This document shows positions 6,668 to 56,396 of a stretch of 64,000 nt of DNA, one piece after another. Origin of the DNA: an uncultured Alphaproteobacteria bacterium (GTDB taxonomy: Bacteria; Pseudomonadota; Alphaproteobacteria; Rs-D84). The notes under the pieces are model-generated. The model was not told where the DNA came from. It saw nothing but the letters and a program-made list of their open reading frames with translations, and ran no database searches. The position numbers and the translations under genes are program-made. The DNA is taken from the NCBI GenBank assembly GCA_947054455.1, contig CAMRWN010000001.1:74966-138965 (forward strand), read 5' to 3'. Positions within the stretch are counted from its first letter, which is position 1. Every line of letters starts with the position of its first letter.

Positions 6668-6677
6668 TTGTATAATC
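6668..6677 (+). promoter_or_regulatory. Extended -10 promoter element TTGTATAATC upstream of virB8
   Basis: A TGnTATAAT-type extended -10 lies ~78 nt upstream of the virB8 GTG start. It is related to, but not identical with, the TGTGATATAAT motif found elsewhere in the window. Confidence 0.4.
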
Positions 6678-6754
6678 TGTATTTTATGCACTTTTTGCTT
6701 GCGCATGTCCGCCGTTTTTTTCTACAATCGCATTATCACGAGGGGGAGAAAAAC

Positions 6755-7432
6755 GTGCAAAACCGCATAGAACCGCCAATTTTGCTATCCAGACTGCTGA
6801 CATTCACATTTGCCGCGGCCTTGGTTGTGCTGTTCGCGCTGGTCATGACACTGGCAAAAATGTTTCCCCTGAACCGGCCCGAAGTGTTTTTTCTGACGAC
6901 CCAGAATCCCGCAAATCTGGAAATGTATGTCAATGAAATGCCGCCGGACGATGCAAATATGGATAATTACAAGCGCATGTTCATACGCGAATACATCAAG
7001 GCCAGGAACGAGGTTAATCCCGCACCATCGGCCATGGCAAAGAAATGGAACGCGGCCGACGGCGTTGTACGCACATGGTCCGCGACCGACGTGTTCGCCG
7101 ATTTTATGCAAACCGCGCTGTGGACAGACCTGATGACGGACGCACCGGATTTCGATTTTTCCTGTTCGGTGGAGTTCAAACCGGGCGCCATAACAAAATA
7201 TTCGACGGACGGCAGTACATATACCGTAAATTTTGCCTGGTTTTGCACAGATAATTATGGACAGACCGCCAAAAAAGATTATACAATAAAGATAAAGCTG
7301 GCAACAGACGACAACGCCGCGTTAAAATGGGCGGACCGGTTGGAAAATCCGTTGGGGATTCGCGTTGTAGAATATTCGGTCGAATCCGGCAACGGCGACC
7401 CACTGAACGCACTGGGGTCGGCAAGACAATAA
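6755..7432 (+). CDS. virB8: Type IV secretion system VirB8-like protein
   Basis: The ORF runs in frame from 6668, but the best start is the GTG at 6755, preceded by a strong RBS (GAGGGGGAGAAAAAC). The protein is ~225 aa with a short cytoplasmic N-terminus, one TM helix (LLTFTFAAALVVLFALVMTL) and a periplasmic domain that ends in the VirB8-family NPLGxxV signature (ENPLGIRVVEY). It is followed by virB9 and virB10 homologues. Confidence 0.8.
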   Translation: MQNRIEPPILLSRLLTFTFAAALVVLFALVMTLAKMFPLNRPEVFFLTTQNPANLEMYVNEMPPDDANMDNYKRMFIREYIKARNEVNPAPSAMAKKWNAADGVVRTWSATDVFADFMQTALWTDLMTDAPDFDFSCSVEFKPGAITKYSTDGSTYTVNFAWFCTDNYGQTAKKDYTIKIKLATDDNAALKWADRLENPLGIRVVEYSVESGNGDPLNALGSARQ

Positions 7433-7451: not shown

Positions 7452-8990
7452 ATGGGCATGACGTTTTCAAGAGTGATAAAATTAAATATTTCCGCACTGT
7501 GTCTGGTTGGCACATGCTTTGCCGCAGAACCTGCCATGTTCGGCATTCAAGAGGCGTGGGACAACCCCAACGCCAACATGGCCGCAGGCAGCATAAAGCC
7601 CGGATACGCACAACTGCCGTGGTCCCAGGGCAGTGTTTTGCCAATCAAGCTGCGCAACGGAATGGTTACGATGCTGACCCTGCCCAACGGTGAACAGATT
7701 GCGGACGCCGTCGTCGGTGATTCCGGCAAGTTTGTGATTGATACGACGGTCGGCGACCGCACCATGTTCATTTCGCCAGAGGCATCAAACCAAGGCAGCG
7801 ACACAAACATGATTGTGACGGGCAAATCCGGAAACAAATACATATTCTATCTGCGGGCAGAACCGTCAAATTCCAGCGAAATCACATATTCCCAGGTTGA
7901 CGTCATACTGGACGGGAACGCGGTACTGCCGGGTGCGTCAGCGTCGGCGACCGGCGCCCAGTCAACCGGAAAGATGAGTTCGATATTTAAAAAATCGACG
8001 TCGGGCGCAGCGGGCGTTGTCGGCGTTGACGGCGAAGATTACGGCTGGATAAAATCAATGAAAATCGACCCGTCGGAATTCCGTTTCGATTTGGACATAT
8101 TCGTGCCGAACCCCGACGATTATGTCATCGCGCCGGAACGCGTGTGGCGCGACAGAATATTTACATATATTGATTTCGGGGACAAGGTTATCGCAATGAC
8201 ACAGCGACCGGTGGTTTCACTGTTGGTCGAAGGTGGCGAATCCCCGGTCGGATTCCGCACGGACGGCGAAGACGGCCGCCTGTTGATAGTAGAGGCGGTT
8301 GGCGACATGGTTCTGCGCAGCGGACAGCGCATTGTCTGCATCAAAAAGCGTGAAAAGCCGTTCCTGATTGCCGACACGGCGTCGGTCATGGCCCTGGCAG
8401 AGGCGAATGTCGCCCAATCCATGATGTCCGGACAGTCGCTGAACAATATTGCATACACAATGGACCAGAACGCGATAAACGCGGCCGGGATAAATTATAC
8501 TGGCACGCCTGTGATGATTGGCAACACCGCATCAAGTGCCGGCGCGGGATACTACATGCCGGCGGGATTTTCCACCGCCGCCACATACGGCGCAACACCG
8601 ACGGGCACCCCCGTCATGATGCCGACCGAAAGAATAACGGCGGGTTCATATTTGCCGCAATCAAACATACCGCTGATTACCAGCAACCAATCCGGGGTCG
8701 CGGTGGAACTGAAATCCGATACATCAATCAAGGCACTGGACGAATACTGGGTTGGCCTGCTGGCAAAATTCAGCGGCGAAAACGGTGTGGGCGTGCTGAC
8801 CCCTTACAAGGACATGGTGTTCTTTGCGGTTGACGAACAGGGTGTCGGTGATTTGGGCGCGGGTTCGTCAACGGCGCGCCTGTATCGCCTGCGCATAGGG
8901 CCGATGTCAGATATTGAAACCGCGCAGAAACTGTGCGACCAGCTGTTGAAGTTCAGCGGCGCCAGCTGCAGCGTGGTGCGCATCCAGTAA
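7452..8990 (+). CDS. virB9: Type IV secretion system VirB9/TrbG-like protein with a C-terminal extension carrying a SPOR-like domain
   Basis: It has a signal peptide (ALCLVGTCFAAEP). The N-terminal domain matches the VirB9 pattern (VVGDSGKFVIDTT...TNMIVTGKSGNKYIFYLRA). The VirB9 C-terminal domain is present (IFTYIDFGDKVIAMTQ...LLIVEAVGDMVLRSGQRIVCIKK). An extra ~200 aa of Gly/Ala/Thr-rich sequence then ends in LYRLRIGPMSDIETAQKLCDQLLKFSGASCSVVRI, which resembles the second half of a SPOR peptidoglycan-binding domain. Confidence 0.8.
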   Translation: MGMTFSRVIKLNISALCLVGTCFAAEPAMFGIQEAWDNPNANMAAGSIKPGYAQLPWSQGSVLPIKLRNGMVTMLTLPNGEQIADAVVGDSGKFVIDTTVGDRTMFISPEASNQGSDTNMIVTGKSGNKYIFYLRAEPSNSSEITYSQVDVILDGNAVLPGASASATGAQSTGKMSSIFKKSTSGAAGVVGVDGEDYGWIKSMKIDPSEFRFDLDIFVPNPDDYVIAPERVWRDRIFTYIDFGDKVIAMTQRPVVSLLVEGGESPVGFRTDGEDGRLLIVEAVGDMVLRSGQRIVCIKKREKPFLIADTASVMALAEANVAQSMMSGQSLNNIAYTMDQNAINAAGINYTGTPVMIGNTASSAGAGYYMPAGFSTAATYGATPTGTPVMMPTERITAGSYLPQSNIPLITSNQSGVAVELKSDTSIKALDEYWVGLLAKFSGENGVGVLTPYKDMVFFAVDEQGVGDLGAGSSTARLYRLRIGPMSDIETAQKLCDQLLKFSGASCSVVRIQ

Positions 8991-9014: not shown

Positions 9015-11384
9015 ATGAACAAAATAAAAATGCAGTTTTCACAGTTGCGCAACACAACGCCAAAGTACGTGCAATGGCTGCTGTTGCTGGCGGCGTTTCT
9101 GGTCGTAATTATATTGTTTACGCTGATGATGACGGGGTCTAAAAAAGCGCCTGTCATTGAAAAGGAATCCACCGCTGTCAAAATAACGGTGTCTGACGAA
9201 AACATAGACTGGGCCGCGACCAAGGTCGGCCAGAAAAAGACGCAGTCGATAAAAATAACCACGACCGCGCCCGCCCGCATCGCCGTCAGACGCACCAAGG
9301 ACATAGACGGATTCAAACCGCTGGATACATGCAACAACATAGGCGAGATAACGCCCCAGTTCCCGTGTACAATAACACTGGAATATGCACCGACGCATGA
9401 AATGCCGGTTCAGGGCGTACCACTCTTTATAGATTGGCGCGGCGCCGACATGCCCGAAAGCATGAACGAAACTATCAAGATTACCGTCGTACTGGGCGCC
9501 AGCGAACCAGAACCTGCGGTAATTGCCGAACCCGTCGTCGAACCGGTACCGGCGGTCATCCCAGAACCAAAGCCTGAGCCGCAGCCGGCCCCCACCCAGA
9601 TTCAGCGCGAGATAGAGGCAATCGCCCCGTCATACGATGAAATATTCGAACCCAAGCCAGCAGCCCAAAAGAAAAAGGAAGTTTTCCAACCGCAGACCCA
9701 GGCCGAGATGACAAAAGAGGCATGCTCGGATTTCGCGTTTCCTGGATACGATACATCCGGCAACCAAATCGGCTGGATAAAGCCGGAGGGCGGTGCATAC
9801 TATTTCCATCCGTTTTCGGACAAAAACTGCGACACACCGACCGGTGTTTACAACCCGGACAACGGAATCATAACCGACATAAAAAACACTGGCAATAAAA
9901 TCGGCACCGATGCGGAACACATCGGTTATACAATGATAAGCGCTGCCGCAATCCCACAGCTGTCAAACGCGCCGTCATCAAAACGTGTAAACCGCGCGGT
10001 ACAGGCGCCAACACCAATCAACAGCACCGGCATGGCCAGAATGAGCAATGATTGGACCACGCTGACACAAAGCATTGTCTCCCCGGCACCGCAAGAAGAT
10101 GTTATTTTCGGAACAACCGGTGATGTGGTTGTTGCCACCGCCCCGTACGACCGCACATTTATTCTGCGCCAGTACAAGCCGATTCCGGCAACAATCGTCT
10201 CTGACGTTCGCGCCGACACCGCGCTGGCGAAGGATAATTTGAAATTCCCCGTACGCGCAACCGTCGACCGCAATGTATATTCCGACAACGGTCGCACAAT
10301 TATCATACCGACGGGAACCCTGCTGATGGGATACGTATCGGGCGATGTGCCGGGCCCCTATAAGGCAATCGGCCGCATGAACATAAAATGGTACCAGTTT
10401 GTTTTGCCCAACGGGGTTGAATTTAATTTCGAAATCGGAGACGAACCGGAATCCGCCGACTCTCAGGGACGCATCGGCGTACCCGGCCGTGGCAGCACGG
10501 ATTACATGGAACAGTTTGTGATGCCGATGCTGACGGCGATTGTACCGGCGGCGGTGAATATGATTGCACCTGTCGCGGACAAGTTTGTAAACCAGATTGA
10601 CCTGGACAACAACACCGTCGTGCAATCCGGCACGCTGCGTTCGTCCGAACTGGCCAAGAACGAAATTATAACCGCATGGAACCAGGTTGCGCAAAAGCTG
10701 ATGGTGGACATGATGGACAACACCGTGCCGCCCTTTACAATCCCTGCCGGCACACGCATAACCGTATACGCCCCGACCGATTTGGCGGTATCATGTACGG
10801 ACTCTACAAAAAAATGCTATATGGAAGACCTGCGCAGCAAAGCGAATAATAAGCGCACGAATCCTAAGTGGAATGCGACCGAGGCAGATGATGATTCCTG
10901 GGTTGGACAGGTACGCTCATTCAATTCGCAACAATATTGCACCCAGGATGCACAAGGTTTATGGACAGCCCAAGAACGTTGCGCGCAATATGGTGTATGT
11001 GGCAACTATTCATACAGAACGTTGCTGCTGTACTGCCAATCGCTGAACTATCAGTCAAAAAACAACGCCCGCCAAGAACAGTTGTTCCAGAACCAGCAAG
11101 ATGCATCAAACAAAAACAGCATCGCCAGCATGGGCGGCGTCGGTTCGACGCAATATAATGAAAATGTCCTGGGATTGCAGTACGCCGACGAAGACAAGAC
11201 GACAATAGTAAATCCGTTCCAAACCCTGCCCAAGGAAGAGGCGCCCGCCGCACTCACATGCATGGACGGTTCCAATCCGGACATGAACGGATGCTGTGCC
11301 GGGGAAATATATACCGACATGGGCGATCAGGGATTCAATTGCTGTCCTGAAACGGGTGGCGACTGTTTCCCGCCGATACTGTAG
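9015..11384 (+). CDS. virB10: Type IV secretion system VirB10/TrbI-like protein (789 aa) with a Pro-rich linker and a Cys-rich C-terminal extension
   Basis: There is an N-terminal TM helix (WLLLLAAFLVVIILFTLMM) followed by a Pro-rich region (EPEPAVIAEPVVEPVPAVIPEPKPEPQPAP). The VirB10/TrbI barrel domain is present (VYSDNGRTIIIPTGTLLMGYVSGDVPG...WYQFVLPNGVEF...GRIGVPGRGSTDYMEQFVMPMLTAIV). About 200 further C-terminal residues contain 14 Cys. Confidence 0.85.
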   Translation: MNKIKMQFSQLRNTTPKYVQWLLLLAAFLVVIILFTLMMTGSKKAPVIEKESTAVKITVSDENIDWAATKVGQKKTQSIKITTTAPARIAVRRTKDIDGFKPLDTCNNIGEITPQFPCTITLEYAPTHEMPVQGVPLFIDWRGADMPESMNETIKITVVLGASEPEPAVIAEPVVEPVPAVIPEPKPEPQPAPTQIQREIEAIAPSYDEIFEPKPAAQKKKEVFQPQTQAEMTKEACSDFAFPGYDTSGNQIGWIKPEGGAYYFHPFSDKNCDTPTGVYNPDNGIITDIKNTGNKIGTDAEHIGYTMISAAAIPQLSNAPSSKRVNRAVQAPTPINSTGMARMSNDWTTLTQSIVSPAPQEDVIFGTTGDVVVATAPYDRTFILRQYKPIPATIVSDVRADTALAKDNLKFPVRATVDRNVYSDNGRTIIIPTGTLLMGYVSGDVPGPYKAIGRMNIKWYQFVLPNGVEFNFEIGDEPESADSQGRIGVPGRGSTDYMEQFVMPMLTAIVPAAVNMIAPVADKFVNQIDLDNNTVVQSGTLRSSELAKNEIITAWNQVAQKLMVDMMDNTVPPFTIPAGTRITVYAPTDLAVSCTDSTKKCYMEDLRSKANNKRTNPKWNATEADDDSWVGQVRSFNSQQYCTQDAQGLWTAQERCAQYGVCGNYSYRTLLLYCQSLNYQSKNNARQEQLFQNQQDASNKNSIASMGGVGSTQYNENVLGLQYADEDKTTIVNPFQTLPKEEAPAALTCMDGSNPDMNGCCAGEIYTDMGDQGFNCCPETGGDCFPPIL

Positions 11385-11407
11385 AAATACACGTCCAGAA
11401 ACAACCA

Positions 11408-11440
11408 AGGCGCGCATACATTGCGCGCTTTCTTTATTAT
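11408..11440 (+). terminator. Rho-independent terminator after virB10
   Basis: A GC hairpin, aaggcgcgca-tacat-tgcgcgcttt, followed by a T-rich tract, lies ~25 nt after the virB10 stop. Confidence 0.6.
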
Positions 11441-11622: not shown

Positions 11623-11964
11623 ATGACACAAACACAATCCGCATGCACACCGGAAAAATTTCAAAATTCGGAACAACTGTGGTTCTGGTTTCTATATTCC
11701 AAATCGGTGCAGTCCGGATTCATACGCACACATGGCAACGCGACGCGACGGCCGTGCGAATTGTTGGACGTTGAAACCCTTATCACTAAATTGTATTTGT
11801 CCGGCGCACTGACGGATGAACAACTGGCCGTTATGAAGCAGTTCGGCGACAGGCGCCGCGCACCGCACCAATACATATGGGCGGAAAATCGGGCGGCCGA
11901 CCTGTGGCGCCGCGCAATGGCGACACTGCAGAACGCCGCAGTCAAACGCGGCTGGATAGAATAG
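11623..11964 (+). CDS. Hypothetical protein (113 aa)
   Basis: An ORF with a strong RBS (AAAGGAGAGG) 7 nt upstream of its ATG. No recognisable family. It lies immediately downstream of the virB8-10 operon terminator. Confidence 0.5.
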   Translation: MTQTQSACTPEKFQNSEQLWFWFLYSKSVQSGFIRTHGNATRRPCELLDVETLITKLYLSGALTDEQLAVMKQFGDRRRAPHQYIWAENRAADLWRRAMATLQNAAVKRGWIE

Positions 11965-12016: not shown

Positions 12017-12364
12017 ATGATAATAATCGCATTTACAAGTCATACGTCCAAAATACCGCCCCGCATATTCTGCAGACATTTCCGGCACTGCGCGGTCATC
12101 GTTCCCAACGGCGCCGGTGTCCGTTCAATGACGATGCACCAGTTCGTCCGCCGTCGAAATGTTGCGCAAATATCGCTGGCGCCGCGCGACATACGGATAC
12201 TTGGGGCGCACGGATGGCGCTTCATATATCTGGCGTGCGATATCGCGAACGATTTCAATCCGTCGCATGCGCGCACATGTGTGGATTTAAGCAAGCGCGC
12301 CATCGGAATTCACGCGCCGCTGATACAGACGCCGGATGCACTGTACAAATATTTGAAAAAATAA
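12017..12364 (+). CDS. Hypothetical protein (115 aa)
   Basis: An ORF with a weak RBS, followed directly by a bidirectional terminator. No family recognised. Confidence 0.4.
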   Translation: MIIIAFTSHTSKIPPRIFCRHFRHCAVIVPNGAGVRSMTMHQFVRRRNVAQISLAPRDIRILGAHGWRFIYLACDIANDFNPSHARTCVDLSKRAIGIHAPLIQTPDALYKYLKK

Positions 12365-21064: not shown

Positions 21065-23002
21065 ATGCGGAATTGGTTGCAAAATAACATCGGGGACGCC
21101 TTTGTGTTCGCACCGTTTATAATTGCGGGCGGGGCCGCGCTGTATTTCACATGCGGCGCCGAACCCGGCATACCAATGTGGGCCGCAGGCGCGGCGATTG
21201 CGGCATCTATCATGATGCTGCAAAAAACACAAATTATTACGCGGGCAATCGCACTGTTTGCATTCGGATTTTTCTATGCCATGGTCTATACGAATGCAGT
21301 CGACACGCCGCTGATGACCCGAAACATGCGCGACGCCGCATTGGACGCAACGGTTGAAAACATAGATTACACACCCGACAAACACAGAATTTATCTGCAG
21401 GTCGATGCATCCGACATAAATGCCGGCGACGGTCGTGCAATCGTGCGTGTTTCCGCGCCAGGGGATTCGACGCCACCGCAAATCGGCGACAAAATCCGTG
21501 CAAACGTCGGCTTGTTTCGTCCCGCGCCCGCGGATGCACCCGGCGCGTTCGACTATGCACGCTGGGCATATTTCAACAAACTGTCCGCGACTGGATACAT
21601 GGACGAATACACAGTACTGGCCGACAACGGCGGCGGTGGAATAAATTCCGTGCGAAAGTTTCTGCATGAAAAGGCCAATTCCCACCTGACAGACGGGCTG
21701 GTGCTGGGATATAAAAACATCCTGACCCAGGACGAGCGGCAATATTGGACCACCGCCGGCATCGGACACGTCTGGTCAATCAGCGGATTTCACATGACAC
21801 TGGTGGCGGGATGGCTGTTTGCAATATTCTATATGATATTCAGATGCATTCCACGCATCACCCGTGCATATCCGGCGCGCATTCCAGCGATGTTCGCCGC
21901 ATGGTGCGGACTGGTCGGGTACCTGATGATTTCGGGCGTGGGCGTCGCGACGGTGCGCGCATTTCTGATGACAAGCCTGATGTTCGCGGCGGTGGCCCTG
22001 GGGCGCAGCGCGATTTCAATGCGAAACATATGCATTGCGTTCTGCATTATATTTCTGATTAATCCGCACAATGTCATGCAGGCCGGATTCCAGTTGTCTT
22101 TCGCCGCGATTTTCGGTCTGATTTGGTTTTGGGGCGTTGTGCGTCCTAAAATGCCGCGTGGCAGAATATCAAAAATTATTTTCACAGCGGTGATGACATC
22201 GCTGGTGGCGACAATATTCACAACGCCGTTCGTCGCCGCGCACTTTCACACCATACCGACATACGGGCTGATTGGCAATCTGACGCTGCTGCCTATATTT
22301 TCCCTGTTGATAATGCCGCTGGTTATGGTGGGGACGTTTGCGGCCGCGATCGGAATTCATGCCCCGCTGGAATTGGCGCATTGGATTTATGATTTTGCAC
22401 TGCTGGGCGCGCGGCAAATATCGGCGCTGCCGATGGCTGAAATAATAACACCGCATATTCCAGGTATCGCACTGGTCATTATGACGGCCGGACTGGTTGG
22501 ACTGATGTTTATCAAGCCCGGCAGATATAAAATCAACGTTATTATATGCAGCCTGGCCATGGCCGCCGGATGCACGATGACGGCATTGGCGCCGCGTCCG
22601 ATGTTTTTCGCAACAAGCGACCACGAACTGGTCGCGTTCGCGAACGATGATGCAATCGAGTTCAACAAGGCGCGCGCATCAAATCACTATTTTACATTCG
22701 ACACATGGAAGCAGATGCTGGGGCTGCCCGCCGGCACCAAAAATATTCGCCGCGCACACGACCGGGGCGTGTACGATTTCAAGACGCAGAACTTTCACTT
22801 GGTATACATTCAAAAATTCGTGCCGCTGATGCGCAACATTGAAAAACTGTGCCATGACCCGGACATTGATTACATAGTGTCATATTTTGATATTCAATCG
22901 CCGTCATGCGGGGACAAAATTCTGCGCGGCGGATTTGTAATCGACCCGTCGGGTCGTGTCAGAAACGCGCAGCTTAATCGTCGCTGGCATAATCACAGCT
23001 GA
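21065..23002 (+). CDS. comEC: ComEC/Rec2 family DNA internalisation channel protein; no C-terminal metallo-beta-lactamase domain evident
   Basis: A 645-aa ORF with an N-terminal DUF4131-like region and the polytopic competence domain (HVWSISGFHMTLVAGWLF, VRAFLMTSLMFAAVALGRS, QLSFAAIFGLIWFW). Confidence 0.8.
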   Translation: MRNWLQNNIGDAFVFAPFIIAGGAALYFTCGAEPGIPMWAAGAAIAASIMMLQKTQIITRAIALFAFGFFYAMVYTNAVDTPLMTRNMRDAALDATVENIDYTPDKHRIYLQVDASDINAGDGRAIVRVSAPGDSTPPQIGDKIRANVGLFRPAPADAPGAFDYARWAYFNKLSATGYMDEYTVLADNGGGGINSVRKFLHEKANSHLTDGLVLGYKNILTQDERQYWTTAGIGHVWSISGFHMTLVAGWLFAIFYMIFRCIPRITRAYPARIPAMFAAWCGLVGYLMISGVGVATVRAFLMTSLMFAAVALGRSAISMRNICIAFCIIFLINPHNVMQAGFQLSFAAIFGLIWFWGVVRPKMPRGRISKIIFTAVMTSLVATIFTTPFVAAHFHTIPTYGLIGNLTLLPIFSLLIMPLVMVGTFAAAIGIHAPLELAHWIYDFALLGARQISALPMAEIITPHIPGIALVIMTAGLVGLMFIKPGRYKINVIICSLAMAAGCTMTALAPRPMFFATSDHELVAFANDDAIEFNKARASNHYFTFDTWKQMLGLPAGTKNIRRAHDRGVYDFKTQNFHLVYIQKFVPLMRNIEKLCHDPDIDYIVSYFDIQSPSCGDKILRGGFVIDPSGRVRNAQLNRRWHNHS

Positions 23003-31350: not shown

Positions 31351-32671
31351 CCAACTTTTTTACAGATTCAGCCGACATCAAAATATTGTACTTGGCGTTC
31401 AACAGCGCCATGTCCAATTGATACAGGCCTGCCGAAACCTCGGCCAGTTCGATGGCCGACGTCTGGCCCGCGGCAAAACGTTCCTGAGAGAACTGGTACG
31501 CCTTGGCCGCCAGATTTCGCGCATTCTCCAGCGTCGCCAGATTGCCGCGCAAATGATTGTACTTCTTTATCGCCGTGTTGTATTCTTCTGTCTTCAGCTT
31601 TTTGGACTTGTCCAAATCCTGGCGTGCGGCCTCGGCGTCCATGGCGGAAACCGTGGCGTTCGCACGGTGCAGACCGCCGCTGAAAATCGGCATCTGCAAC
31701 GCCAGTCCCCACGACGCGGACTGCGAACCCTTTTTATCAAACATTCCGTCGAATTCGGAACCCATCGCATAATAATTGTAAGACGCGGTCGCCGCCAGTG
31801 TCGGCAGATATTCCGCACGCGACGACTTCGCTTTGGATTCGTACATGCTGACCTGCTGGGCCAGGATTTCCCATTCCGGATTGTTCTTCAGTTTTCCCGC
31901 ATCCAACGCCGAAAACTTGGTGGGGAAATTATCGGTCAGAACGATTTCCTCGTCCATGTCGATGCCCGCCAAAATCTTCAGCATGCGGTACGCCGTGTCG
32001 CGGTTGAATTCCGCATCGGACAAATTTATTTCCTTGCTGGCGATATCGGATTCGATTTTCACCAGATTGCTGCGCGACGCGCGGCCGGCCGCCCCCAGGT
32101 TGCGACGTGCGCTTTTCGCCGCCTGCAGGTCGGAACGTGCAATCTTTACTATATCATCGGTCATTTTGGCCGTCCAATACAGGTCGACCGCGCTGTATTT
32201 AACCTCGCGGCGGGTCAGCTCGCGGCTGGCCTCGGACATCTTTATTGCGGACTTTACGCTTTTGACCGCATTGCCTATCTTGCCAAATGTGTAAATTGGC
32301 TGGGACACGCTGACGCCGGCCATAAATATGTTGTCCGGTATTTCAATATACACAGACTGGTTCTTCAACGATTCCGAAATCAGTCCCCCGAACGCAGGCG
32401 GCAGCTCTATGCCCTTGGACTTGGACGGATCTTCTACGTTGACCATGTTCATATACGACGCCGTACCCTTGATATTGAACCAGCGGTTTGCATTCGCCGC
32501 ATCCAACTGGGCCTGGGCTTTTTGCACGTTGGCCTCGGCCTTTTTCAAGTCCTGGGATTCATGCATGATTTTTTCAACCGCGCCGTTCAGCGACAAATCC
32601 ATACACATCGCGTTGCCGCACAAACACGCAACACCGGCCCCTATGACAATCGCCGGTCTGATTTTAATCAT
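31343..32671 (-). CDS. tolC: TolC-family outer membrane efflux protein
   Basis: A 442-aa ORF with a signal peptide and two tandem repeats of the OEP/TolC coiled-coil pattern. Confidence 0.85.
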   Translation of the reverse strand: MIKIRPAIVIGAGVACLCGNAMCMDLSLNGAVEKIMHESQDLKKAEANVQKAQAQLDAANANRWFNIKGTASYMNMVNVEDPSKSKGIELPPAFGGLISESLKNQSVYIEIPDNIFMAGVSVSQPIYTFGKIGNAVKSVKSAIKMSEASRELTRREVKYSAVDLYWTAKMTDDIVKIARSDLQAAKSARRNLGAAGRASRSNLVKIESDIASKEINLSDAEFNRDTAYRMLKILAGIDMDEEIVLTDNFPTKFSALDAGKLKNNPEWEILAQQVSMYESKAKSSRAEYLPTLAATASYNYYAMGSEFDGMFDKKGSQSASWGLALQMPIFSGGLHRANATVSAMDAEAARQDLDKSKKLKTEEYNTAIKKYNHLRGNLATLENARNLAAKAYQFSQERFAAGQTSAIELAEVSAGLYQLDMALLNAKYNILMSAESVKKLGE

Positions 32672-33113
32672 TATTCAACTCCATCTTTGTTAAAACATTG
32701 TTCATTGTCTTCAGCGCGCCGGTCAGAACCTCTTCATCCTCGCGGCTGATGTTTTCGAACATGTGCGCAATGTCTTCACGGAACACCTCCATCGCCTGGC
32801 GGGCTATTTCCTCGCCTGCGGGCGTGCAGGAATACCATGTATTGCGACGGTCGTGTTCGTCAACGGTACGCGCGACCATTCCGTCCTGTTCCAGTTTGCG
32901 GAACGTGGCGCACAAATTCGGCGCCGGAACCATTTCGCGGCGTGCGATATCTTTTAGACGGGCACGCCCCCCAATGCTCAGCCGCACCAAAACCATCAGT
33001 TGGTTGCGCGGATATCCGGTACGGATATGCGGTGCGCGCTTTAACCGGTCAGCCAGTCTGTCTAAAATCAAGATATTTGATTCAAACAAACGAATAAATT
33101 CCTTGCGGGCCAT
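32664..33113 (-). CDS. MarR-family transcriptional regulator
   Basis: A 149-aa ORF with a winged-helix motif (RLKDIARREMVPAPNLCATFRKLEQDGMVAR). It is the first gene of the efflux operon. Confidence 0.85.
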   Translation of the reverse strand: MARKEFIRLFESNILILDRLADRLKRAPHIRTGYPRNQLMVLVRLSIGGRARLKDIARREMVPAPNLCATFRKLEQDGMVARTVDEHDRRNTWYSCTPAGEEIARQAMEVFREDIAHMFENISREDEEVLTGALKTMNNVLTKMELNND

Positions 33114-33257
33114 ATTTTATCCTTTATAATAACATCGTTCGGCCTTTAATAATTAAAAACCTGAATTATTATATTTTTTAACAAATTAATTGCAAGCACA
33201 AAATTAAAAAAATTTCAAAAATCTTTGCCTGAATATTGAAAAAAGCATTTTTTGTTA

Positions 33258-33285
33258 TTGCAAAAGCCGTAAAGTTCTTTATAAT
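33258..33285 (+). promoter_or_regulatory. Sigma70-type promoter for tRNA-Gln (TTGCAA-N16-TATAAT)
   Basis: The -35 TTGCAA lies at 33258-33263 and the -10 TATAAT at 33280-33285. The tRNA 5' end is 12 nt downstream. Confidence 0.55.
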
Positions 33286-33297
33286 CTGTGATGCCTT

Positions 33298-33371
33298 TGG
33301 GGTGTCGTCTAATGGTAGGACAAGAGATTTTGGTTCTCTTTATCATGGTTCGAATCCGTGCGCCCCAACCA
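33298..33371 (+). tRNA. trnQ: tRNA-Gln (anticodon UUG)
   Basis: The sequence is TGGGGTGTCGTCTAATGGTAGGACAAGAGATTTTGGTTCTCTTTATCATGGTTCGAATCCGTGCGCCCCAACCA. It has a 7-bp acceptor stem, anticodon loop ATTTTGG(T), a GGTTCGAATCC T-arm and an encoded CCA. Confidence 0.85.
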
Positions 33372-33383
33372 GTTTCAAAACAA

Positions 33384-33410
33384 ATGCCCCAGACGGGGCA
33401 TTTATTTTGA
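33384..33410 (+). terminator. Rho-independent terminator after tRNA-Gln
   Basis: The hairpin aaatgcccc-agac-ggggcattt is followed by a T-run. Confidence 0.65.
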
Positions 33411-33636
33411 AATGATGTATCGCGCGGATTGTAATCGTCCGTTTCACACGATTACAGCAAAACGTTATTAACGTTTTGTACGCGTTTTGTTCCAAAACGC
33501 TAGTGGGGCCATCCCCACACCCCTGTGTGCGCCCCAACCAGGATAAACAAAGTCAGCACACAGGCGACTTTTTCTTTGGTTTTCCAGTGTTTGATTTCGG
33601 AAAATAGCAATTTTTTTGAACTTTCGAACTTTTTTA

Positions 33637-33645
33637 TGATAAAAT
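33637..33645 (+). promoter_or_regulatory. Extended -10 element TGATAAAAT placed 9 nt upstream of the protease ATG (leaderless-type architecture)
   Basis: TATGATAAAAT-gcacatgaa-ATG. No -35 match. The architecture parallels the TGTGATATAAT promoters found elsewhere in the window. Confidence 0.4.
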
Positions 33646-33654
33646 GCACATGAA

Positions 33655-34581
33655 ATGCGTAAGATATTTGTATTTTTATCATGTTTAATAACAGCGCCAG
33701 CGATTGCGGCTGATGATGCCTGCACAAAGCCGAAAGAGTTCACAGTCGATAAACGTTGCTATGTTACCAGTGCACAAAAAAAACAAAAGCCATTTAATGC
33801 AACAGTCGGCTTAGTTAATGGTGATTTAAAAGCATACTGTACGGGCACAATCGTGAAGGGATACTACGGATATAACGGCGATAAAGCAACCACACAAGAA
33901 AAAGAAACCATATATGTTTATACTGCCAAACATTGCACCGACCGCAACAAAGACGGCAAACCCGACACTTATCTGGATATAGTATTACAAAATGGCGACA
34001 GTTATAAAATTAAATTTGCACGTGCTGGTCAATACAAGATTCTGTCAGACGAAAAAGCTGCAGGCGACTATGCATTATATACTATAGATGAGCAAACTGA
34101 CATTCCAGGCAGCAAAATACCATATACAACAATAAGCGACAAATGGGGGTTCCTGGGACTCAGACAACTGGATGCACGTGTTGTTGGATATGGCACATTA
34201 AAGATTATGTCCGACAAAGAAATAAAAATATTCAAAAGCAAATATATTAATTTTATGAAACAACAAGGTATGTCTGCCAAGGATTCTGGTGTAAAGATAA
34301 GCACGAAGTGGGGTACAAAATTTATGCAAAACTTAGATCATGACTACCAGAACGATTTATTCGCCAACCATAGCTTGAAAGTTTCAAATTGTAAATACCA
34401 CAGTGTCGGCACACAAATAGGCTGTCAAGCATGGAGCGGTAATTCTGGGGGTGGCATATTTGATAATAATGGCGAACTGATGGGAATTTATACCAGAGGG
34501 CATCGTATCGTAGGCGGGGAAAATCATGCAGCCTCAATTACCACAACAAAATACCCATCAACAATTCCTATCGCATTTTAA
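33655..34581 (+). CDS. Secreted trypsin-like (S1/chymotrypsin-fold) serine peptidase, island-encoded
   Basis: It has a signal peptide (FVFLSCLITAPAIAADD) and a His motif (YTAKHC). An Asp lies in DYALYTID, and the Ser motif GNSGGG is a variant of GDSGGP. The gene is AT-rich relative to the window. Confidence 0.65.
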   Translation: MRKIFVFLSCLITAPAIAADDACTKPKEFTVDKRCYVTSAQKKQKPFNATVGLVNGDLKAYCTGTIVKGYYGYNGDKATTQEKETIYVYTAKHCTDRNKDGKPDTYLDIVLQNGDSYKIKFARAGQYKILSDEKAAGDYALYTIDEQTDIPGSKIPYTTISDKWGFLGLRQLDARVVGYGTLKIMSDKEIKIFKSKYINFMKQQGMSAKDSGVKISTKWGTKFMQNLDHDYQNDLFANHSLKVSNCKYHSVGTQIGCQAWSGNSGGGIFDNNGELMGIYTRGHRIVGGENHAASITTTKYPSTIPIAF

Positions 34582-34601
34582 CAAAATTTAAGGAGCGCAC
34601 A

Positions 34602-34955
34602 ATGAAACAAAAAACAGATAAGATAAAAAACTTGAAACGCGCTGGTACGATAATTGCAATCGCGGGCAGTTTGGCACTGGGTAGCGTGTCAATTTCACGC
34701 ACCACCAAAGACGACTCCACAGATCCTACAGAAAACAAGGAATATATTAAACACTTGGAACATGTTGCGGATGAAATGACACATGAGCAAAAACTGCAAT
34801 TTATTCACGATGGAAAAGAAGTATTGAATAATCTGCAACAGAAAATTGATTCTGATGAAACCAATCCCGAAGAACGCTTTGAGGCATTAAGATCAAAACG
34901 TTTGGTTAATAAGGAAATTGAAGTAATGCAGAAAAAGTTGAATAACGGAAGATAG
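34602..34955 (+). CDS. Hypothetical small secreted or membrane-anchored protein (117 aa)
   Basis: A good RBS (AAGGAG) lies 7 nt before the ATG. The N-terminal hydrophobic segment is TIIAIAGSLALGSVSIS. The gene is AT-rich and followed by a terminator hairpin at ~34984..35010. Confidence 0.5.
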   Translation: MKQKTDKIKNLKRAGTIIAIAGSLALGSVSISRTTKDDSTDPTENKEYIKHLEHVADEMTHEQKLQFIHDGKEVLNNLQQKIDSDETNPEERFEALRSKRLVNKEIEVMQKKLNNGR

Positions 34956-35029
34956 ATATCGGCAGAATATTCTACTAATACAAAGTCGCATCTAATGGTG
35001 CGATTTTTATATTCAGATTGCATACGAGC

Positions 35030-35974
35030 TCAAAACGCTTCTTCGCAACGGTGGGTTTCTTTAATAATCTTGTTTATCTTGGTCAAACTCGCAATATTAA
35101 ATCCGGTTGAAACACCACTCAGCACAGTTGTCGCACCCGCCATCACATTCGCGGTTGTATTCAGGTTCTTTTCCTTCTTTTTGCCAGATTCTGAATTATC
35201 ATTACGAATGCCCGATGAATTTGCCACGGCACTGTTTACTGTGCCGGTTGCACCGGTAACGCCCCCCGCAATACTTGTTCCCATGACAACAGTTTGCTGT
35301 TTTTCAAATTTTTCTATTTCTGTGGCGTCAATGTTTCCACACCATGTTTTTATATTATCAAGTTTCCGAACAATTGGATTTTCCATAGGATTCAGCCCGC
35401 CTACATCCGCATTTTTGACCGATGCAACCGCGTTATTACATGCAGTTATCTGCTGTATTAAATCAGACTGATTATGATTGACACCCGACACAATCGCAGA
35501 CGTAATATTTGTTGCCGTTGCACCCGCCATCAGGCCCGTACGCCAATTTCCCATTCTTTTTGAACGTTTTTCCGCATCCACCAATTGCTGTTGCAATTCG
35601 GCAATTTCAGACATCGGCAGTATAACACTGTTAAAGAAAGTATCCGGGCTCATTTGCGCCACCGTATCGGGATTACACCCGCCGGCATCACAAATCTGCT
35701 TTTCCAAGCGTTCTATTTCTTTATCTATCTGAGCCTTGGATAATCCTGCATATAATGCACCACCAGCCGCAACGGCACCAACACCGGACACAACCGTGCC
35801 TGCCGTCGTCATATTTTTCAAATGTTGCAATTCATCGGATATACCACTACAAACAGCGCTTGTTGCATTATAAAGTTGTGTAAGTTGTAAAATTCTGTCC
35901 GCATCATCTGCATGCGCTGATGTATTAAGCGTCAACACCGCAACCATAAACAAGAACAAATAACCGGATTTCAT
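35030..35974 (-). CDS. Hypothetical secreted protein (314 aa) with Gly/Ala/Thr-rich segments and scattered Cys
   Basis: It has a signal peptide (MKSGYLFLFMVAVLTLNTSAHA). The ATG lies 9 nt from a TGTGATATAAT extended -10. The gene sits in the AT-rich island. Confidence 0.6.
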   Translation of the reverse strand: MKSGYLFLFMVAVLTLNTSAHADDADRILQLTQLYNATSAVCSGISDELQHLKNMTTAGTVVSGVGAVAAGGALYAGLSKAQIDKEIERLEKQICDAGGCNPDTVAQMSPDTFFNSVILPMSEIAELQQQLVDAEKRSKRMGNWRTGLMAGATATNITSAIVSGVNHNQSDLIQQITACNNAVASVKNADVGGLNPMENPIVRKLDNIKTWCGNIDATEIEKFEKQQTVVMGTSIAGGVTGATGTVNSAVANSSGIRNDNSESGKKKEKNLNTTANVMAGATTVLSGVSTGFNIASLTKINKIIKETHRCEEAF

Positions 35975-35982
35975 GATGATGA

Positions 35983-35995
35983 ATTATATCACAAC
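35983..35995 (-). promoter_or_regulatory. TTGTGATATAATT extended -10 promoter motif; 9 nt separate TATAAT from the ATG of the 35030..35974 gene
   Basis: This is an exact copy of the 11-mer TGTGATATAAT, read on the minus strand. Confidence 0.55.
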
Positions 35996-36295
35996 ATCTA
36001 AATACAATCTATAATAAATAACATAGGTTAGCTGTTGTCCTATGTTTTTAATATATCTATAACTTGCTCGATTTCCGGTGCCATTTTTATCAAATCATTA
36101 TAATAATTAGTTCAAAGATTGTTTATCACGCACAACCAAAAACACCCCGCGGGGTGTTTTTATTTATTTACACTTTCGAGCTGCGTGGTTGTGGTCGGCC
36201 AGCATGATGCATTGATTTTTATTTAGCAGAAACTATATATATGGTATAATTTATTGGATATTTGATTTTATTGTAAAAATAACAGAGTAGCGCTT

Positions 36296-36913
36296 ATGAC
36301 AAAAGATAGTTTTTACCAAGGGATCAAACAGATAGAACTACATAAATTTTATCATGGTTCCGCAACAAAAATCAAAGGCGATTTTTTACAACCCAGAGAA
36401 CAATTTAATAGCATTCAAAACGAACGTGTAGTCGGAGCATTTGTCACATCCGACATAAAGCACGCTAAGTTTTTTGCGATTTGGAAATGTTTAACTGGTG
36501 GTGGCCAAACACAACAAGATGTAAAAAAAGGGACAAAAAGAATTTTTTTTGAAAAATTGTCTGATAATATAAAACCAGAGTTCAATTTGTATACAGTATA
36601 CGAAGCGCCCGACACAAAATTTATTCACGACAAAGGCACAGAATATTATTCGCCTGCACCAATAAAAATCTCAGAACACCAAATATGCAATACTGTTGAA
36701 GAAATAGAAAAATTAGGATATGAAATTTATGTATTAAACGAACCATTAAAAAACAAACCCGACAAACAAACTAATAACAATCAAGCTGTCCAATCTGAAA
36801 TGCATCAAGCAATTGAAAATGGAGCGTATCATCGTGTTGATATTGCAAACTTAATTGAACAACAGAAATCAAAAAACATATTTTATAAACTATTTAATTG
36901 GCAAAAAGATTAA
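36296..36913 (+). CDS. Hypothetical protein (205 aa), island-encoded, with no signal peptide
   Basis: An AT-rich ORF preceded by a TGGTATAAT extended -10 at ~36245. A terminator hairpin (aaaccgcc-aatct-gggcggttt) lies at ~36952-36975. Confidence 0.5.
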   Translation: MTKDSFYQGIKQIELHKFYHGSATKIKGDFLQPREQFNSIQNERVVGAFVTSDIKHAKFFAIWKCLTGGGQTQQDVKKGTKRIFFEKLSDNIKPEFNLYTVYEAPDTKFIHDKGTEYYSPAPIKISEHQICNTVEEIEKLGYEIYVLNEPLKNKPDKQTNNNQAVQSEMHQAIENGAYHRVDIANLIEQQKSKNIFYKLFNWQKD

Positions 36914-37098
36914 ACTGTTCGCATCACGCTGACAGACCACAACCAAGATAAACAAAACCGCCAATCTGGGCGGTTTAATATTGGTATTGGGCCACGGGTT
37001 CGCAATCGCGACAAATGTCGCCGGTTCGACTATGAGTTGGCGTTTGGCGCATGAGCGCGGCGAACGCCATACGAATGCCCCGCAGGCGCAAATGGGTA

Positions 37099-37701
37099 CT
37101 AAAGCTCCCGCTGGCGATTGCGACGTATTGTTTCCTTTATTTCCGCGCGGCGGATTTGCACGCTGTATATCAAATCCAATACATGCCGCCCATGACAGCG
37201 ACGCCCCAGAACACGGCTGTAATATCTCCGGGACAAAACAGGCGCATCATTGCTGCCCAAAACCTGGTATGCGGCCGCATCCAAAGACGATGCAAATGTT
37301 CCTTCATCCATATTAATTTCGTAAACAAAGTCCGGACTTAAAACAGCACGCGACGCAACCGCGGTCGTATCCGCACGCATGCCGGCGTCTTTTTTGCGCA
37401 TGCGCTGTTCCAATTTTTTATTTTTCGCAACCAATTCATTGTACAACGCGTTCAGCCGCACCGTGTCATGCGCCAGCATTCCTATCAGCGACGCGTCCGC
37501 AACAGGACAATGAGACGTATCACGCATATGGCGCGCGGCATAGTTATAGTGCAGCCATACCGGCCCCATATAGGCCACAAATTTATGGACTGGTTCCTCT
37601 TCCCAGACCTGGATATAAATTCTTTGGCTGCATGCGGTCGCCATCAGTGTCATCGACGCCAAGGATGCCTTTAGAACCGCATTTTTTATCTTGTTTTCCA
37701 T
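37099..37701 (-). CDS. Hypothetical lipoprotein (200 aa)
   Basis: The N-terminal signal ends in the lipobox LMATAC. No family recognised. Confidence 0.5.
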   Translation of the reverse strand: MENKIKNAVLKASLASMTLMATACSQRIYIQVWEEEPVHKFVAYMGPVWLHYNYAARHMRDTSHCPVADASLIGMLAHDTVRLNALYNELVAKNKKLEQRMRKKDAGMRADTTAVASRAVLSPDFVYEINMDEGTFASSLDAAAYQVLGSNDAPVLSRRYYSRVLGRRCHGRHVLDLIYSVQIRRAEIKETIRRNRQREL

Positions 37702-37837
37702 TTGTTTAAATTCCGGATATGCATAATTTCATAGTTATTCCTGTAAACATAACCACAAATCAGCAAAAATGCAATATGACGATTTTAAAAAAAATTTGAT
37801 GACAAAAATCAAAACAATGTTATTATAGGGTACGTCC

Positions 37838-37912
37838 GCTCCCATCGTCTAGCGGTTAGGACATCAGATTCTCATTCTGACGACACGGGTTCGAGTCCCG
37901 TTGGGAGTGCCA
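37838..37912 (+). tRNA. trnE: tRNA-Glu (anticodon CUC)
   Basis: The sequence is GCTCCCATCGTCTAGCGGTTAGGACATCAGATTCTCATTCTGACGACACGGGTTCGAGTCCCGTTGGGAGTGCCA. It folds as a cloverleaf with anticodon loop TTCTCAT (CTC), a GGTTCGAGTCC T-arm, a G1-U72 wobble in the acceptor stem and a 3' CCA. A terminator hairpin follows (gcccc-aaa-gggc, T-run). Confidence 0.75.
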
Positions 37913-37965
37913 AGATAAAAAAATTGCCCCAAAGGGCATTTTTTTTACGCCAAACTACCCACTAA

Positions 37966-38700
37966 TCAATTTTTATCCCCGTAATACAGACGCTTGTATT
38001 CACGGTGCACGACGTTCATCAGTTCGCGGCGGGGCGTGCGCTGTTCGGCGGAAAAGACGTATGAAAAATCGCCGTACATATTGTCTTCCCAATCTATAAA
38101 GGTGGTGATTTCCATTGTTTCTGGATTCACCAAAAAATTGTCGCATATATCACCCTGGAACCATCCGTACATAAATCCGGGCGCACCCGCGTCGGCCGGT
38201 TTCAAATCGCGCAATTGGGCCGGATCCCGACGCGCGATTTCATGGATAAAAACCGCAATCTGACGCGCCAGCGTATCAATATTGGCCAACACATCTTCGG
38301 TCGACAACTGACGCAGCGTGCATCCGCGAATAAATTCATACTTGCGAACAATGTGTCCGTCATAGTCCAGCAGCTCCACCCCCGGTATCGGTATTGGCGA
38401 GACGGCATGAAACACATCGACAACACGCTTTTCACGCAGCGCAAGTTCGCGCGAATTGTCCCGGCGCAGCGGAAACTTGTATATATATTCGTCGTTAACG
38501 CCTATAATCAGATTGCGCGTCTGCTGACCGACGAACATCTTGACCCGGCGCAGCGGCTGCTTCAAATCTTTTTTAATAAACTTTATATGCCGTATTGTCG
38601 GCGAATTCAATACCGCACGCAGCGTTTTGCGCCGATGCTTGTTATAAACCAGCGCACAAATAATATTCGTAAAAAAACGCCTGATTTTTGAGCTTTCCAT
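37966..38700 (-). CDS. Phosphotransferase/kinase-like protein (aminoglycoside phosphotransferase/choline kinase fold)
   Basis: A 244-aa ORF with a Brenner-like motif (QGDICDNFLV) and a downstream IDWED motif resembling the APH catalytic and Mg-binding loops. Confidence 0.5.
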   Translation of the reverse strand: MESSKIRRFFTNIICALVYNKHRRKTLRAVLNSPTIRHIKFIKKDLKQPLRRVKMFVGQQTRNLIIGVNDEYIYKFPLRRDNSRELALREKRVVDVFHAVSPIPIPGVELLDYDGHIVRKYEFIRGCTLRQLSTEDVLANIDTLARQIAVFIHEIARRDPAQLRDLKPADAGAPGFMYGWFQGDICDNFLVNPETMEITTFIDWEDNMYGDFSYVFSAEQRTPRRELMNVVHREYKRLYYGDKN

Positions 38701-42679: not shown

Positions 42680-42954
42680 TGAAGCATCGATTGCTGCCGA
42701 TAGTTTTTACGGCTCAATGCTTTATATTATCTATGCCGTCTTTTGGTGCCACACCAAACGAACAGGTGGCATCTGCGGCATATGTCGACAACCGCGTCAA
42801 CGAAATGGAAAGCCGCACCGTCAACAAGGACGAATTCAAAACATTTTCCGACGAACTGCCCAATCGCTTTGTCGACACCACCGAAAATCAGACAATTTCC
42901 GGTGTAAAAACTTATACGTCTTCCCCGATTGTTCCGACGCCGCCGCTGCCGTAA
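42680..42954 (+). CDS. Small secreted hypothetical protein (91 aa), first gene of a two-gene operon
   Basis: A strong RBS (AAGGGGGA) lies 7 nt before the ATG. It has a signal peptide (MKHRLLPIVFTAQCFILSMPSFGA). Its stop overlaps the next gene's start (TAATG). Confidence 0.6.
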
Positions 42955-56352: not shown

Positions 56353-56396
56353 AAAAATCCCGCGCAGTTTGATGCGCGGGATTTTTTTTATTTTGT
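56353..56396. terminator. Bidirectional rho-independent terminator between dnaQ and the 743-aa secreted protein gene
   Basis: The 10-bp GC stem atcccgcgca-gtttga-tgcgcgggat is flanked by A and T runs. Confidence 0.75.

Follow-up and report, generated by a model that had tools for sequence, protein, structure and literature searches.

What is a cysteine-rich tail of about 200 residues doing at the end of a VirB10 homologue? The question is raised by virB10 (9015..11384, + strand) in a 64,000-nucleotide stretch of DNA, here called the window, from an uncultured alphaproteobacterium of the Rs-D84 lineage (assembly GCA_947054455.1, contig CAMRWN010000001.1, positions 74,966 to 138,965). The tail follows the β-barrel and consists of a neck, a short linker and a terminal module with six cysteines. 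We show that this extension is a true part of VirB10, that it is under strong purifying selection and that it lies outside the cytoplasm. We further show, on the evidence of profile searches, that its last 41 residues behave as a reusable module, which also stands at the very end of at least three other unannotated families of extracytoplasmic proteins.

The 789-residue product is encoded by an uninterrupted open reading frame (ORF; coordinates include the stop codon) and is a genuine, though divergent, VirB10/TrbI homologue. Its β-barrel (residues 378-590; 10146..10784, + strand) matches Pfam TrbI (PF03743) over residues 385-590 with 70.1 bits against a cutoff of 35, covering profile positions 3-186 of 188; it is also matched by plasmid VirB10 proteins and by CagY and ComB10, which are the only sequence relatives with a solved structure in the PDB. 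The best NCBIfam matches, NF038091 (VirB10; 62.8 bits, cutoff 220) and NF038092 (ComB10; 47.2 bits, cutoff 300), are far under the equivalog cutoffs, and the protein is therefore classed as a divergent family member rather than an equivalog. A preliminary description of this DNA had recognized the homologue and its length correctly, as well as the roughly 200 residues beyond the barrel: 199 are counted (residues 591-789), and the peptide strings quoted there are present. Its count of 14 cysteines in the extension was too high, as there are 12 (residues 594, 601, 642, 656, 662, 674, 749, 760, 761, 776, 777 and 784), with 16 in the whole protein, and its interval, starting at 10780, was one base out of frame: codon 589 begins at 10779, and the interval corresponds to residues 589-789. 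The CC pairs that it mentioned are two in number (760/761 and 776/777), and the extension is indeed rich in Asn and Gln (9% each, versus 4.9% and 4.6% in the remainder of VirB10). At the cysteine frequency of the window (1.13%), the probability of finding at least 12 cysteines in 199 residues is 3.5e-6; the cysteine density of the extension is therefore not a matter of chance.

The extension recurs in related loci. A search of 5.8 billion proteins lists at least 120 homologues of 772-836 residues, and all of those listed span 99-100% of the query at 54-100% identity. Relatives are encoded in 256 genomes in a scan of one genome per GTDB species, and each of the best 80 of these 256 loci matches VirB10 from residue ~1 to residue 789, the extension being kept throughout the Rs-D84/Candidatus Enterousia lineage. 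The terminal module lies within a stop-free segment of at least 600 residues in 85 of 85 sources and is therefore in the same reading frame as the barrel. Across 79 loci, 84% of the module codons retain the amino acid of the window, half of these by means of a different codon; change at synonymous sites approaches saturation whereas the encoded protein stays the same, from which it follows that the frame is translated. When conservation is expressed as the majority-residue fraction per alignment column, the last 41 residues (0.913) surpass even the barrel (0.878), making the module the most conserved stretch of VirB10, and the neck (residues 591-735) is moderately conserved (0.573). Some short database proteins (for example, P0122 and P0129) do hold the tail alone, but their starts fall within the neck or they are appended to unrelated sequence, which is the pattern of fragments or chimeric contigs. 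An origin of the extension in a missed stop, in a frameshift or in read-through of a separate downstream gene, the possibilities raised at the outset, can thus be set aside for this assembly with near certainty: the ORF is uninterrupted, the fusion is in frame in more than 120 independent assemblies and in 256 species genomes, the codons diverge synonymously around conserved amino acids, and none of the homologues has the extension as a gene of its own. As for location, a transmembrane anchor is found at residues ~15-39 (9057..9131, + strand) by hydropathy scan and as a helix of residues 17-39 in the AlphaFold2 (AF2) model. Its hydrophobic segment (residues 15-33) is preceded by basic residues, the mark of an N-in topology, and everything downstream is therefore extracytoplasmic.

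The terminal module occupies residues 749-789 (11259..11381, + strand) and is delimited by profile search, conservation and AF2. A profile of the 204-residue tail, scored against 1.84 billion representative proteins, gave 252 matches at E <= 1e-3 and 105 at E <= 1e-10. Those covering the whole profile are VirB10 proteins; the remaining matches cover positions ~150-204 only. The consensus of the module is C-x-DG-x2-P-[DN]-x2-GCC-x-GE-x-[YF]-[TK]-D-[ML]-G-x3-[FY]-x-CCP-x2-GG-[DE]-C-[FY]-PP-[ILM]. Every module copy found has six cysteines, spaced C-x10-CC-x14-CC-x6-C in 101 of 157 copies, and this is also the spacing of the copy in the window, which ends in CFPPIL. Of 141 carriers, 140 have their last cysteine 4-11 residues from the C-terminus; several small carriers have two to three copies in tandem. 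Every carrier has either a signal peptide or a transmembrane segment with the module on the outer side, and in two carrier families a Pro-rich spacer tethers the module to a membrane-anchored body. The module defines an unannotated and previously undescribed domain family.

Four classes of carrier can be told apart in the best 150 representatives. About 19 are VirB10 proteins, full-length or fragmentary. About 30 are proteins of 600-850 residues with a cytoplasmic coiled-coil N-terminus, one transmembrane segment, a long Pro-rich spacer, a 'KPAYNVSQNEKMFVA' motif and the module. Approximately 39 or more have 130-330 residues, with a signal peptide, a helical segment containing a cysteine pair (R-x2-C...YR-x2-C) and one to three modules. 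The remaining ~19-35 are of up to 135 residues (the mini-proteins measure ~60-135 residues) and have a hydrophobic N-terminus followed directly by the module. In 127 carriers other than VirB10, Pfam detects no recurrent or interpretable domain, six families matching one member each, and those with a name are listed as 'hypothetical protein [Alphaproteobacteria bacterium]'; they stem from gut metagenome-assembled genome projects of the same kinds.

Two of the carrier families have recognizable gene contexts. The long carrier adjoins gcrA and a prepilin-peptidase cluster: a single-pass protein of 746-798 residues (L085, 8001-10397; L095, 3001-5241) is encoded close to a Peptidase_A24 cluster with several large unannotated genes, and in loci L085-L087 gcrA sits between the carrier and the prepilin peptidase cluster. 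The cytoplasmic N-terminal domain of this protein is highly conserved ('DRKWDDILSNDYGVDLETVRPKKDNKYQKLDIEYSGL') and has no Pfam match. Small carriers of 84 and 250 residues (L088, 8001-8255; L096, 6001-6753) share one slot, at the end of a conserved operon beside ftsQ, which encodes a MacB_PCD/FtsX permease, an ATP-binding cassette (ABC) ATPase and four to five unannotated proteins.

The full-length AF2 model of VirB10 is poor, with a predicted local distance difference test score (pLDDT) of 54. When the last 204 residues are modelled from an alignment of 118 sequences, mean pLDDT rises to 85.8, with values of 90-97 in the module and 69-96 in the neck; the predicted template modelling score of 0.43 fits sub-domains that are joined flexibly. 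In this model the module forms a single β-hairpin (residues 764-768 and 774-778), which the two CC pairs bracket; the module probably contains three disulfides arranged around this hairpin.

The neck (residues 591-735; 10785..11219, + strand) is Asn/Gln-rich, contains cysteines 594, 601, 642, 656, 662 and 674, and is joined to the module by a short Pro/Glu/Ala linker defined by alignment (residues 736-748; 11220..11258, + strand). Ten of the tail cysteines are invariant among 30 aligned homologues. In a comparison of 139 VirB10 C-termini, 94 have ten cysteines and lack 656 and 662, 32-38 have all twelve (4-6 of these with small alignment shifts), six have eight, with 642 and 674 absent together, and one, a truncated sequence, has seven. 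Thus 138 of the 139 have an even number (8, 10 or 12), Cys642 and Cys674 are lost jointly, and Cys656 and Cys662 are gained or lost jointly. Such paired gain and loss, along with the even numbers, is the behaviour of disulfide partners and suggests the pairs 594-601, 642-674 and 656-662, so that the neck may be braced by up to three disulfides. Together with the N-in anchor, this pattern makes a disulfide-rich extracytoplasmic module, as proposed earlier, the most economical reading. Positions 1-150 of the tail profile matched VirB10-like proteins only in the 1.84 billion proteins, and the ~145-residue neck appears to be specific to VirB10 of the Rs-D84 lineage.

The module recalls granulin/epithelin (PF00396), a small β-hairpin domain in which adjacent CC pairs flank the strands. 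This is a resemblance only. Granulin has 12 cysteines and four CC pairs, the VirB10 module six cysteines and two CC pairs; the 12-cysteine pattern is absent and no Pfam match exceeds the threshold, the granulin profile giving sub-threshold matches in three of 118 module sequences (best E 0.076) and Foldseek comparison of the tail with human granulin A giving an E value of 8.6. A functional analogy can be drawn with dockerin (PF00404), which is likewise a small, Asp/Asn/Gly-rich C-terminal module found on many unrelated extracytoplasmic proteins of a single organism and sometimes duplicated. Dockerins are Cys-poor, Ca-binding helix pairs, and they share no Pfam match and no sequence or fold similarity with the module. 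We know of no cohesin-like partner for the VirB10 module.

What, then, might the module do? The reading that we favour, tentatively and with somewhat less than even confidence, is that it is a disulfide-stabilized docking or binding unit for one common ligand, tethered to the core ring of a secretion system. A binding role is suggested because the module is repeated in tandem, is placed at the tip of Pro-rich spacers and is extremely conserved across carriers that are otherwise unlike; repetition in tandem typifies binding modules, not sorting signals. The barrel is followed by a lineage-specific neck that may hold up to three disulfides, a short Pro-rich linker and then the 41-residue six-cysteine mini-domain, probably held by its three disulfides. 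In this lineage the mini-domain, single or repeated two or three times, closes extracytoplasmic proteins that have nothing else in common, namely VirB10, the inner-membrane-anchored protein of 600-850 residues, the small signal-peptide proteins at the end of MacB-type ABC operons and the mini-proteins. The VirB10 ring, a 14-mer in canonical systems, would then bear a crown of flexibly tethered binding sites of presumed stoichiometry, and this crown would tie the secretion core to a common component of the envelope or possibly to a component of a partner cell.

Several results weigh against a docking unit. No second module was found in the 64-kb window by hidden Markov model (HMM) search of its six-frame translation, the VirB10 copy being the only one, and in 84 loci the stretches of +/-10 kb around virB10 held no second module gene. 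What links VirB10 to the other carriers is lineage-level names and gene contexts, not a shared genome. The extension has no Pfam or NCBIfam match even at E <= 1-10, a profile search of PDB sequences returned nothing at E <= 10, and Foldseek comparison of the tail with PDB and BFVD gave no match with E < 1; these four resources revealed no ligand, partner or structural analogue of the module. Finally, the small carriers at the end of the MacB-type pump operon could be exported peptides instead.

The strongest rival is a surface adhesin or host-contact element, as envisaged in the preliminary description, in which the tail would reach out by way of the outer-membrane channel, or past it, to bind the surface of a partner cell or host. 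We regard this as unlikely, a live rival and not a supported conclusion. A Cys-rich, Asn/Gln-rich composition is common in extracellular proteins and counts in its favour, as do the location of the module at the tip of long Pro-rich spacers and the occurrence of small, possibly exported signal-peptide proteins, consisting of the module only, in MacB-type pump operons. An adhesin would also serve the attachment needs of an obligately partner-dependent bacterium, and this lineage has genomes under 1 Mb, lacks many biosynthetic pathways and has been proposed to depend on other cells (PMC12306168). However, in canonical systems the VirB10 barrels form the inner ring of the periplasmic O-layer and the antenna helices alone cross the outer membrane (PMC12857230). 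The tail has no similarity to known adhesin domains, and the 743-residue Cys-rich secreted protein encoded in the window, which had been named as a place to look for it, lacks the module (E > 10 by HMM). This protein (56388..58619, - strand) has 34 cysteines, an Ala/Ser/Thr-rich N-terminal region and no Pfam match.

The docking interpretation can also be extended, although we consider the extension a long shot: the six-cysteine module may be a lineage-wide docking code that joins several envelope machines on one scaffold for contacting or feeding on a partner cell. The machines would be the stand-alone VirB8-9-10 core, possibly operating without the canonical ATPases of a type IV secretion system (T4SS), the MacB-type pump and the periplasm-spanning, inner-membrane-anchored protein, and the VirB10 tail would plug the co-opted secretion core into the apparatus.

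Two further rivals are weaker than the adhesin. It is improbable that the module is a C-terminal sorting or export tag read by a dedicated machine such as the neighbouring MacB-type ABC system, although the strictly C-terminal position in 140 of 141 carriers and the placement of the 84- and 250-residue carriers at the end of the MacB_PCD/FtsX and ABC operon are what a tag would lead one to expect, and MacAB-TolC does export a small disulfide-bonded peptide, the enterotoxin STII. Internal tandem copies exist, however, and VirB10, fixed in the core ring, is an implausible export cargo. The module ends in ...GGDCFPPI[LK] plus 0-6 further residues, with neither the hydrophobic helix nor the basic tail of sortase- and exosortase-type signals (LPXTG, PEP-CTERM and GlyGly-CTERM), and has no NCBIfam match to them. 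It also matches no sorting-domain model, that of the type IX secretion system (T9SS) included: Pfam and NCBIfam give no match to the T9SS C-terminal domain, a β-sandwich of ~80-100 residues as opposed to 41 residues with a single hairpin. It is equally doubtful that the six cysteines and conserved Asp/Glu/Asn residues coordinate Zn, Cu or an Fe-S cluster or act as a redox switch, given the extracytoplasmic location, the disulfide-like pairing of the neck cysteines, the lack of any match to a known metal-binding family and, as weak evidence, the compact hairpin that AF2 predicts at high confidence in the absence of metal, even though six invariant cysteines within 36 residues (two CC pairs included), many invariant acidic and amide residues and the consistently intact six-cysteine copies would suit such a role.

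Upstream of the barrel, VirB10 is also elaborated. The anchor is followed by an Ig-like β-sandwich domain (residues ~55-165; 9177..9509, + strand) with a conserved Cys106/Cys118 pair, a weak ASH match below the cutoff (E 4.7e-5), a choice-of-anchor-D match (E 0.0026) and strands modelled by AF2 at pLDDT ~80. A Pro/Glu-rich linker comes next (residues ~166-200; 9510..9614, + strand), defined by sequence and alignment and with a weak TonB polyproline match; its ~32 residues agree with the 30-residue proline linker noted earlier. A second β domain (residues 237-305; 9723..9929, + strand) has a conservation of 0.849, AF2 pLDDT of ~80 and Cys237 and Cys272 invariant in the alignment. Since the barrel begins at residue ~378-385, about 380 residues precede it, not the ~450 given in the preliminary description. 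At the antenna position of the barrel, AF2 draws long helices (residues 495-533 and 543-568), but with pLDDT < 50; a hydrophobic stretch is detected by hydropathy scan at residues 502-520.

In its general plan of N-terminal anchor, Pro-rich spacer and TrbI barrel, the window VirB10 is like pKM101 TraF, Agrobacterium tumefaciens VirB10, Helicobacter pylori ComB10 and the C-terminal domain of CagY. To our knowledge, no T4SS subunit other than VirB10 spans the two membranes, and its known elaborations, such as those of CagY and DotG, are N-terminal. The gene order virB8-virB9-virB10 is that of the minimized T4SS; unlike the VirB10 of that system, the window protein adds the 199-residue Cys-containing tail and two N-terminal β domains. 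A VirB10/TrbI match is found on 465 of 72,556 plasmids, none of which aligns past query residue ~648, and several of these alignments run directly into virB11. The statement that VirB10 ends shortly after the barrel therefore stands for the 465 plasmid matches and fails for the nearest plasmid relatives, in which tails of ~70-130 residues are present.

These plasmid systems, the trio's nearest relatives, make up a rare and uncharacterized T4SS subtype, represented by eight plasmid records according to VirB9, with members in Sphingosinicella sp. BN140058 (p1), Erythrobacter aureus, Microvirga sp. VF16 (pMVF16-3) and Candidatus Paracaedimonas plasmids. Its VirB9 proteins match that of the window most closely (31-37% identity, E down to 3e-50) and have a long C-terminal extension, reaching ~430-550 residues in the Microvirga and Sphingosinicella members. 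Its VirB10 proteins, like that of the window, have extra N-terminal sequence and a tail past the barrel, and the presence of these tails indicates that a VirB10 tail may be ancestral to the subtype. The plasmid tails differ in being Gln/Pro-rich, Cys-free and unrelated in sequence to neck or module, and the plasmid clusters also encode a VirB4-like gene, VirB11 and VirD4. What seems to be specific to Rs-D84 is the structured, Cys-containing neck with a module grafted onto it.

Decorated core subunits have a precedent in the bacteria-killing T4SS of Xanthomonas, in which VirB7 and VirB8 have C-terminal extensions of obscure role (PMC6536674). Those extensions differ in the subunits concerned (VirB7, VirB8 and VirB2) and in composition, the VirB8 piece being of low complexity, with many Ala, Gln, Gly and Pro residues, rather than a Cys-rich fold; they are also not common to proteins outside the T4SS, unlike the VirB10 module. 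We found no literature on C-terminal or Cys-rich extensions of VirB10, and the terms 'C-terminal extension', 'cysteine' and 'SPOR' do not occur in a 2025 review (PMC12857230).

The virB10 gene is the last of three. The first, virB8 (6668..7432, + strand), matches Pfam VirB8 with 44.1 bits (cutoff 23.2), and its true start may be an internal ATG. The second, virB9 (7452..8990, + strand), encodes 512 residues, compared with ~270-300 in the canonical plasmid systems used for comparison. It contains a CagX domain (residues 54-299; 79.8 bits), an Ala/Gly/Thr-rich spacer of ~170 residues and a C-terminal, peptidoglycan-binding SPOR domain (residues 474-510; 22.5 bits, cutoff 21), and shares 31% identity with the VirB9 of the Microvirga plasmid (E 3e-50). 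A terminator-like hairpin with a 10-bp stem, six G-C pairs and a T-rich tail lies 23 nt past the virB10 stop codon (11407..11431, + strand) and is likely to mark the end of the virB8-virB9-virB10 transcript. The hairpin separates virB10 from two small ORFs without Pfam matches (11623..11964, + strand, 113 residues; 12017..12364, + strand, 115 residues), both of which are kept at the same position in ~80 related loci, the former at 74-84% identity.

The order virB8-virB9-virB10 is repeated in relatives, and in the window as in distant relatives the trio stands alone among housekeeping genes, in the core genome. In most loci examined, it is flanked by secE-nusG-rplKAJL-rpoB and, at its opposite end, by yidC or gyrA; in locus L094 the trio lies between ClpB-like and ABC-transporter genes. 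Unlike the minimized T4SS, the trio has no VirB4, VirB11 or VirD4 gene near it, none being found within 10 kb in ~85 loci: tblastn over the window and 97 related loci, 1.83 Mb together, detected neither these nor VirB6, VirB2 or VirB3, a search that is insensitive for small subunits. The source organisms of the loci are uncultured Alphaproteobacteria of gut and rumen, of which many bear the name Candidatus Enterousia and some the label 'uncultured Rickettsiales'; complete chromosomes (958 kb and 716 kb) are among the loci. The GTDB order Rs-D84 is described as having genomes under 1 Mb without amino acid, nucleotide or lipid biosynthesis and as probably an obligate symbiont or parasite (PMC12306168). 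The word 'secretion' is absent from that report, and we found no literature on type IV secretion in Rs-D84. Among NCBIfam models, ComB10 ranks second for VirB10, and a ComB-like role of the trio in DNA uptake, in a lineage that is unable to make nucleotides, is conceivable.

Several other features of the window deserve mention. Five adjacent, distantly related paralogues of 406-476 residues with 5-7 transmembrane segments each (46954..48243, - strand, and 48313..53527, + strand) are kept throughout the clade, and at least three of them have a CxxC motif near the N-terminus. Their candidacy as VirB6 is not supported: there is no Pfam or PDB profile match, and hhalign probabilities are 0.6% against three TrbL/VirB6 proteins and 0.1-0.2% against the proteins in the VirB6 position of the Microvirga and Sphingosinicella clusters. 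A ComEC-like gene (21065..23002, + strand) was identified by synteny with relatives, and a ComFC-like gene (62923..63669, - strand) encodes a double zinc ribbon and a phosphoribosyltransferase. The region 32000..38000 has a GC content of 0.40-0.46, versus ~0.52 elsewhere, and may be an acquired island; it encodes a trypsin-like peptidase (33655..34581), an APH-like phosphotransferase (37966..38700) and several signal-peptide proteins without Pfam matches. A 504-residue protein without a Pfam match (42717..44231, + strand) has about six tandem repeats of ~27 residues ('SG-x-IP-x2-LF-x-GI-x-G-x-P...MF...TF') and may be a repeat-containing surface protein.

A whole lineage of uncultured gut symbionts with genomes under 1 Mb thus retains the virB8-9-10 trio in its core genome, and it appears to have grafted onto VirB10 a previously undescribed Cys-knot module that is reused on other unannotated envelope proteins. 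This will not overturn T4SS biology; it connects 'dark' families of envelope proteins to a secretion core and opens a concrete way of testing how these uncultured bacteria arrange or employ their envelope. If the module is a docking unit, it would help to identify the structure to which the secretion core is fastened in bacteria beyond the reach of culture, and it would be the first functional link among several families of hypothetical proteins in this lineage.

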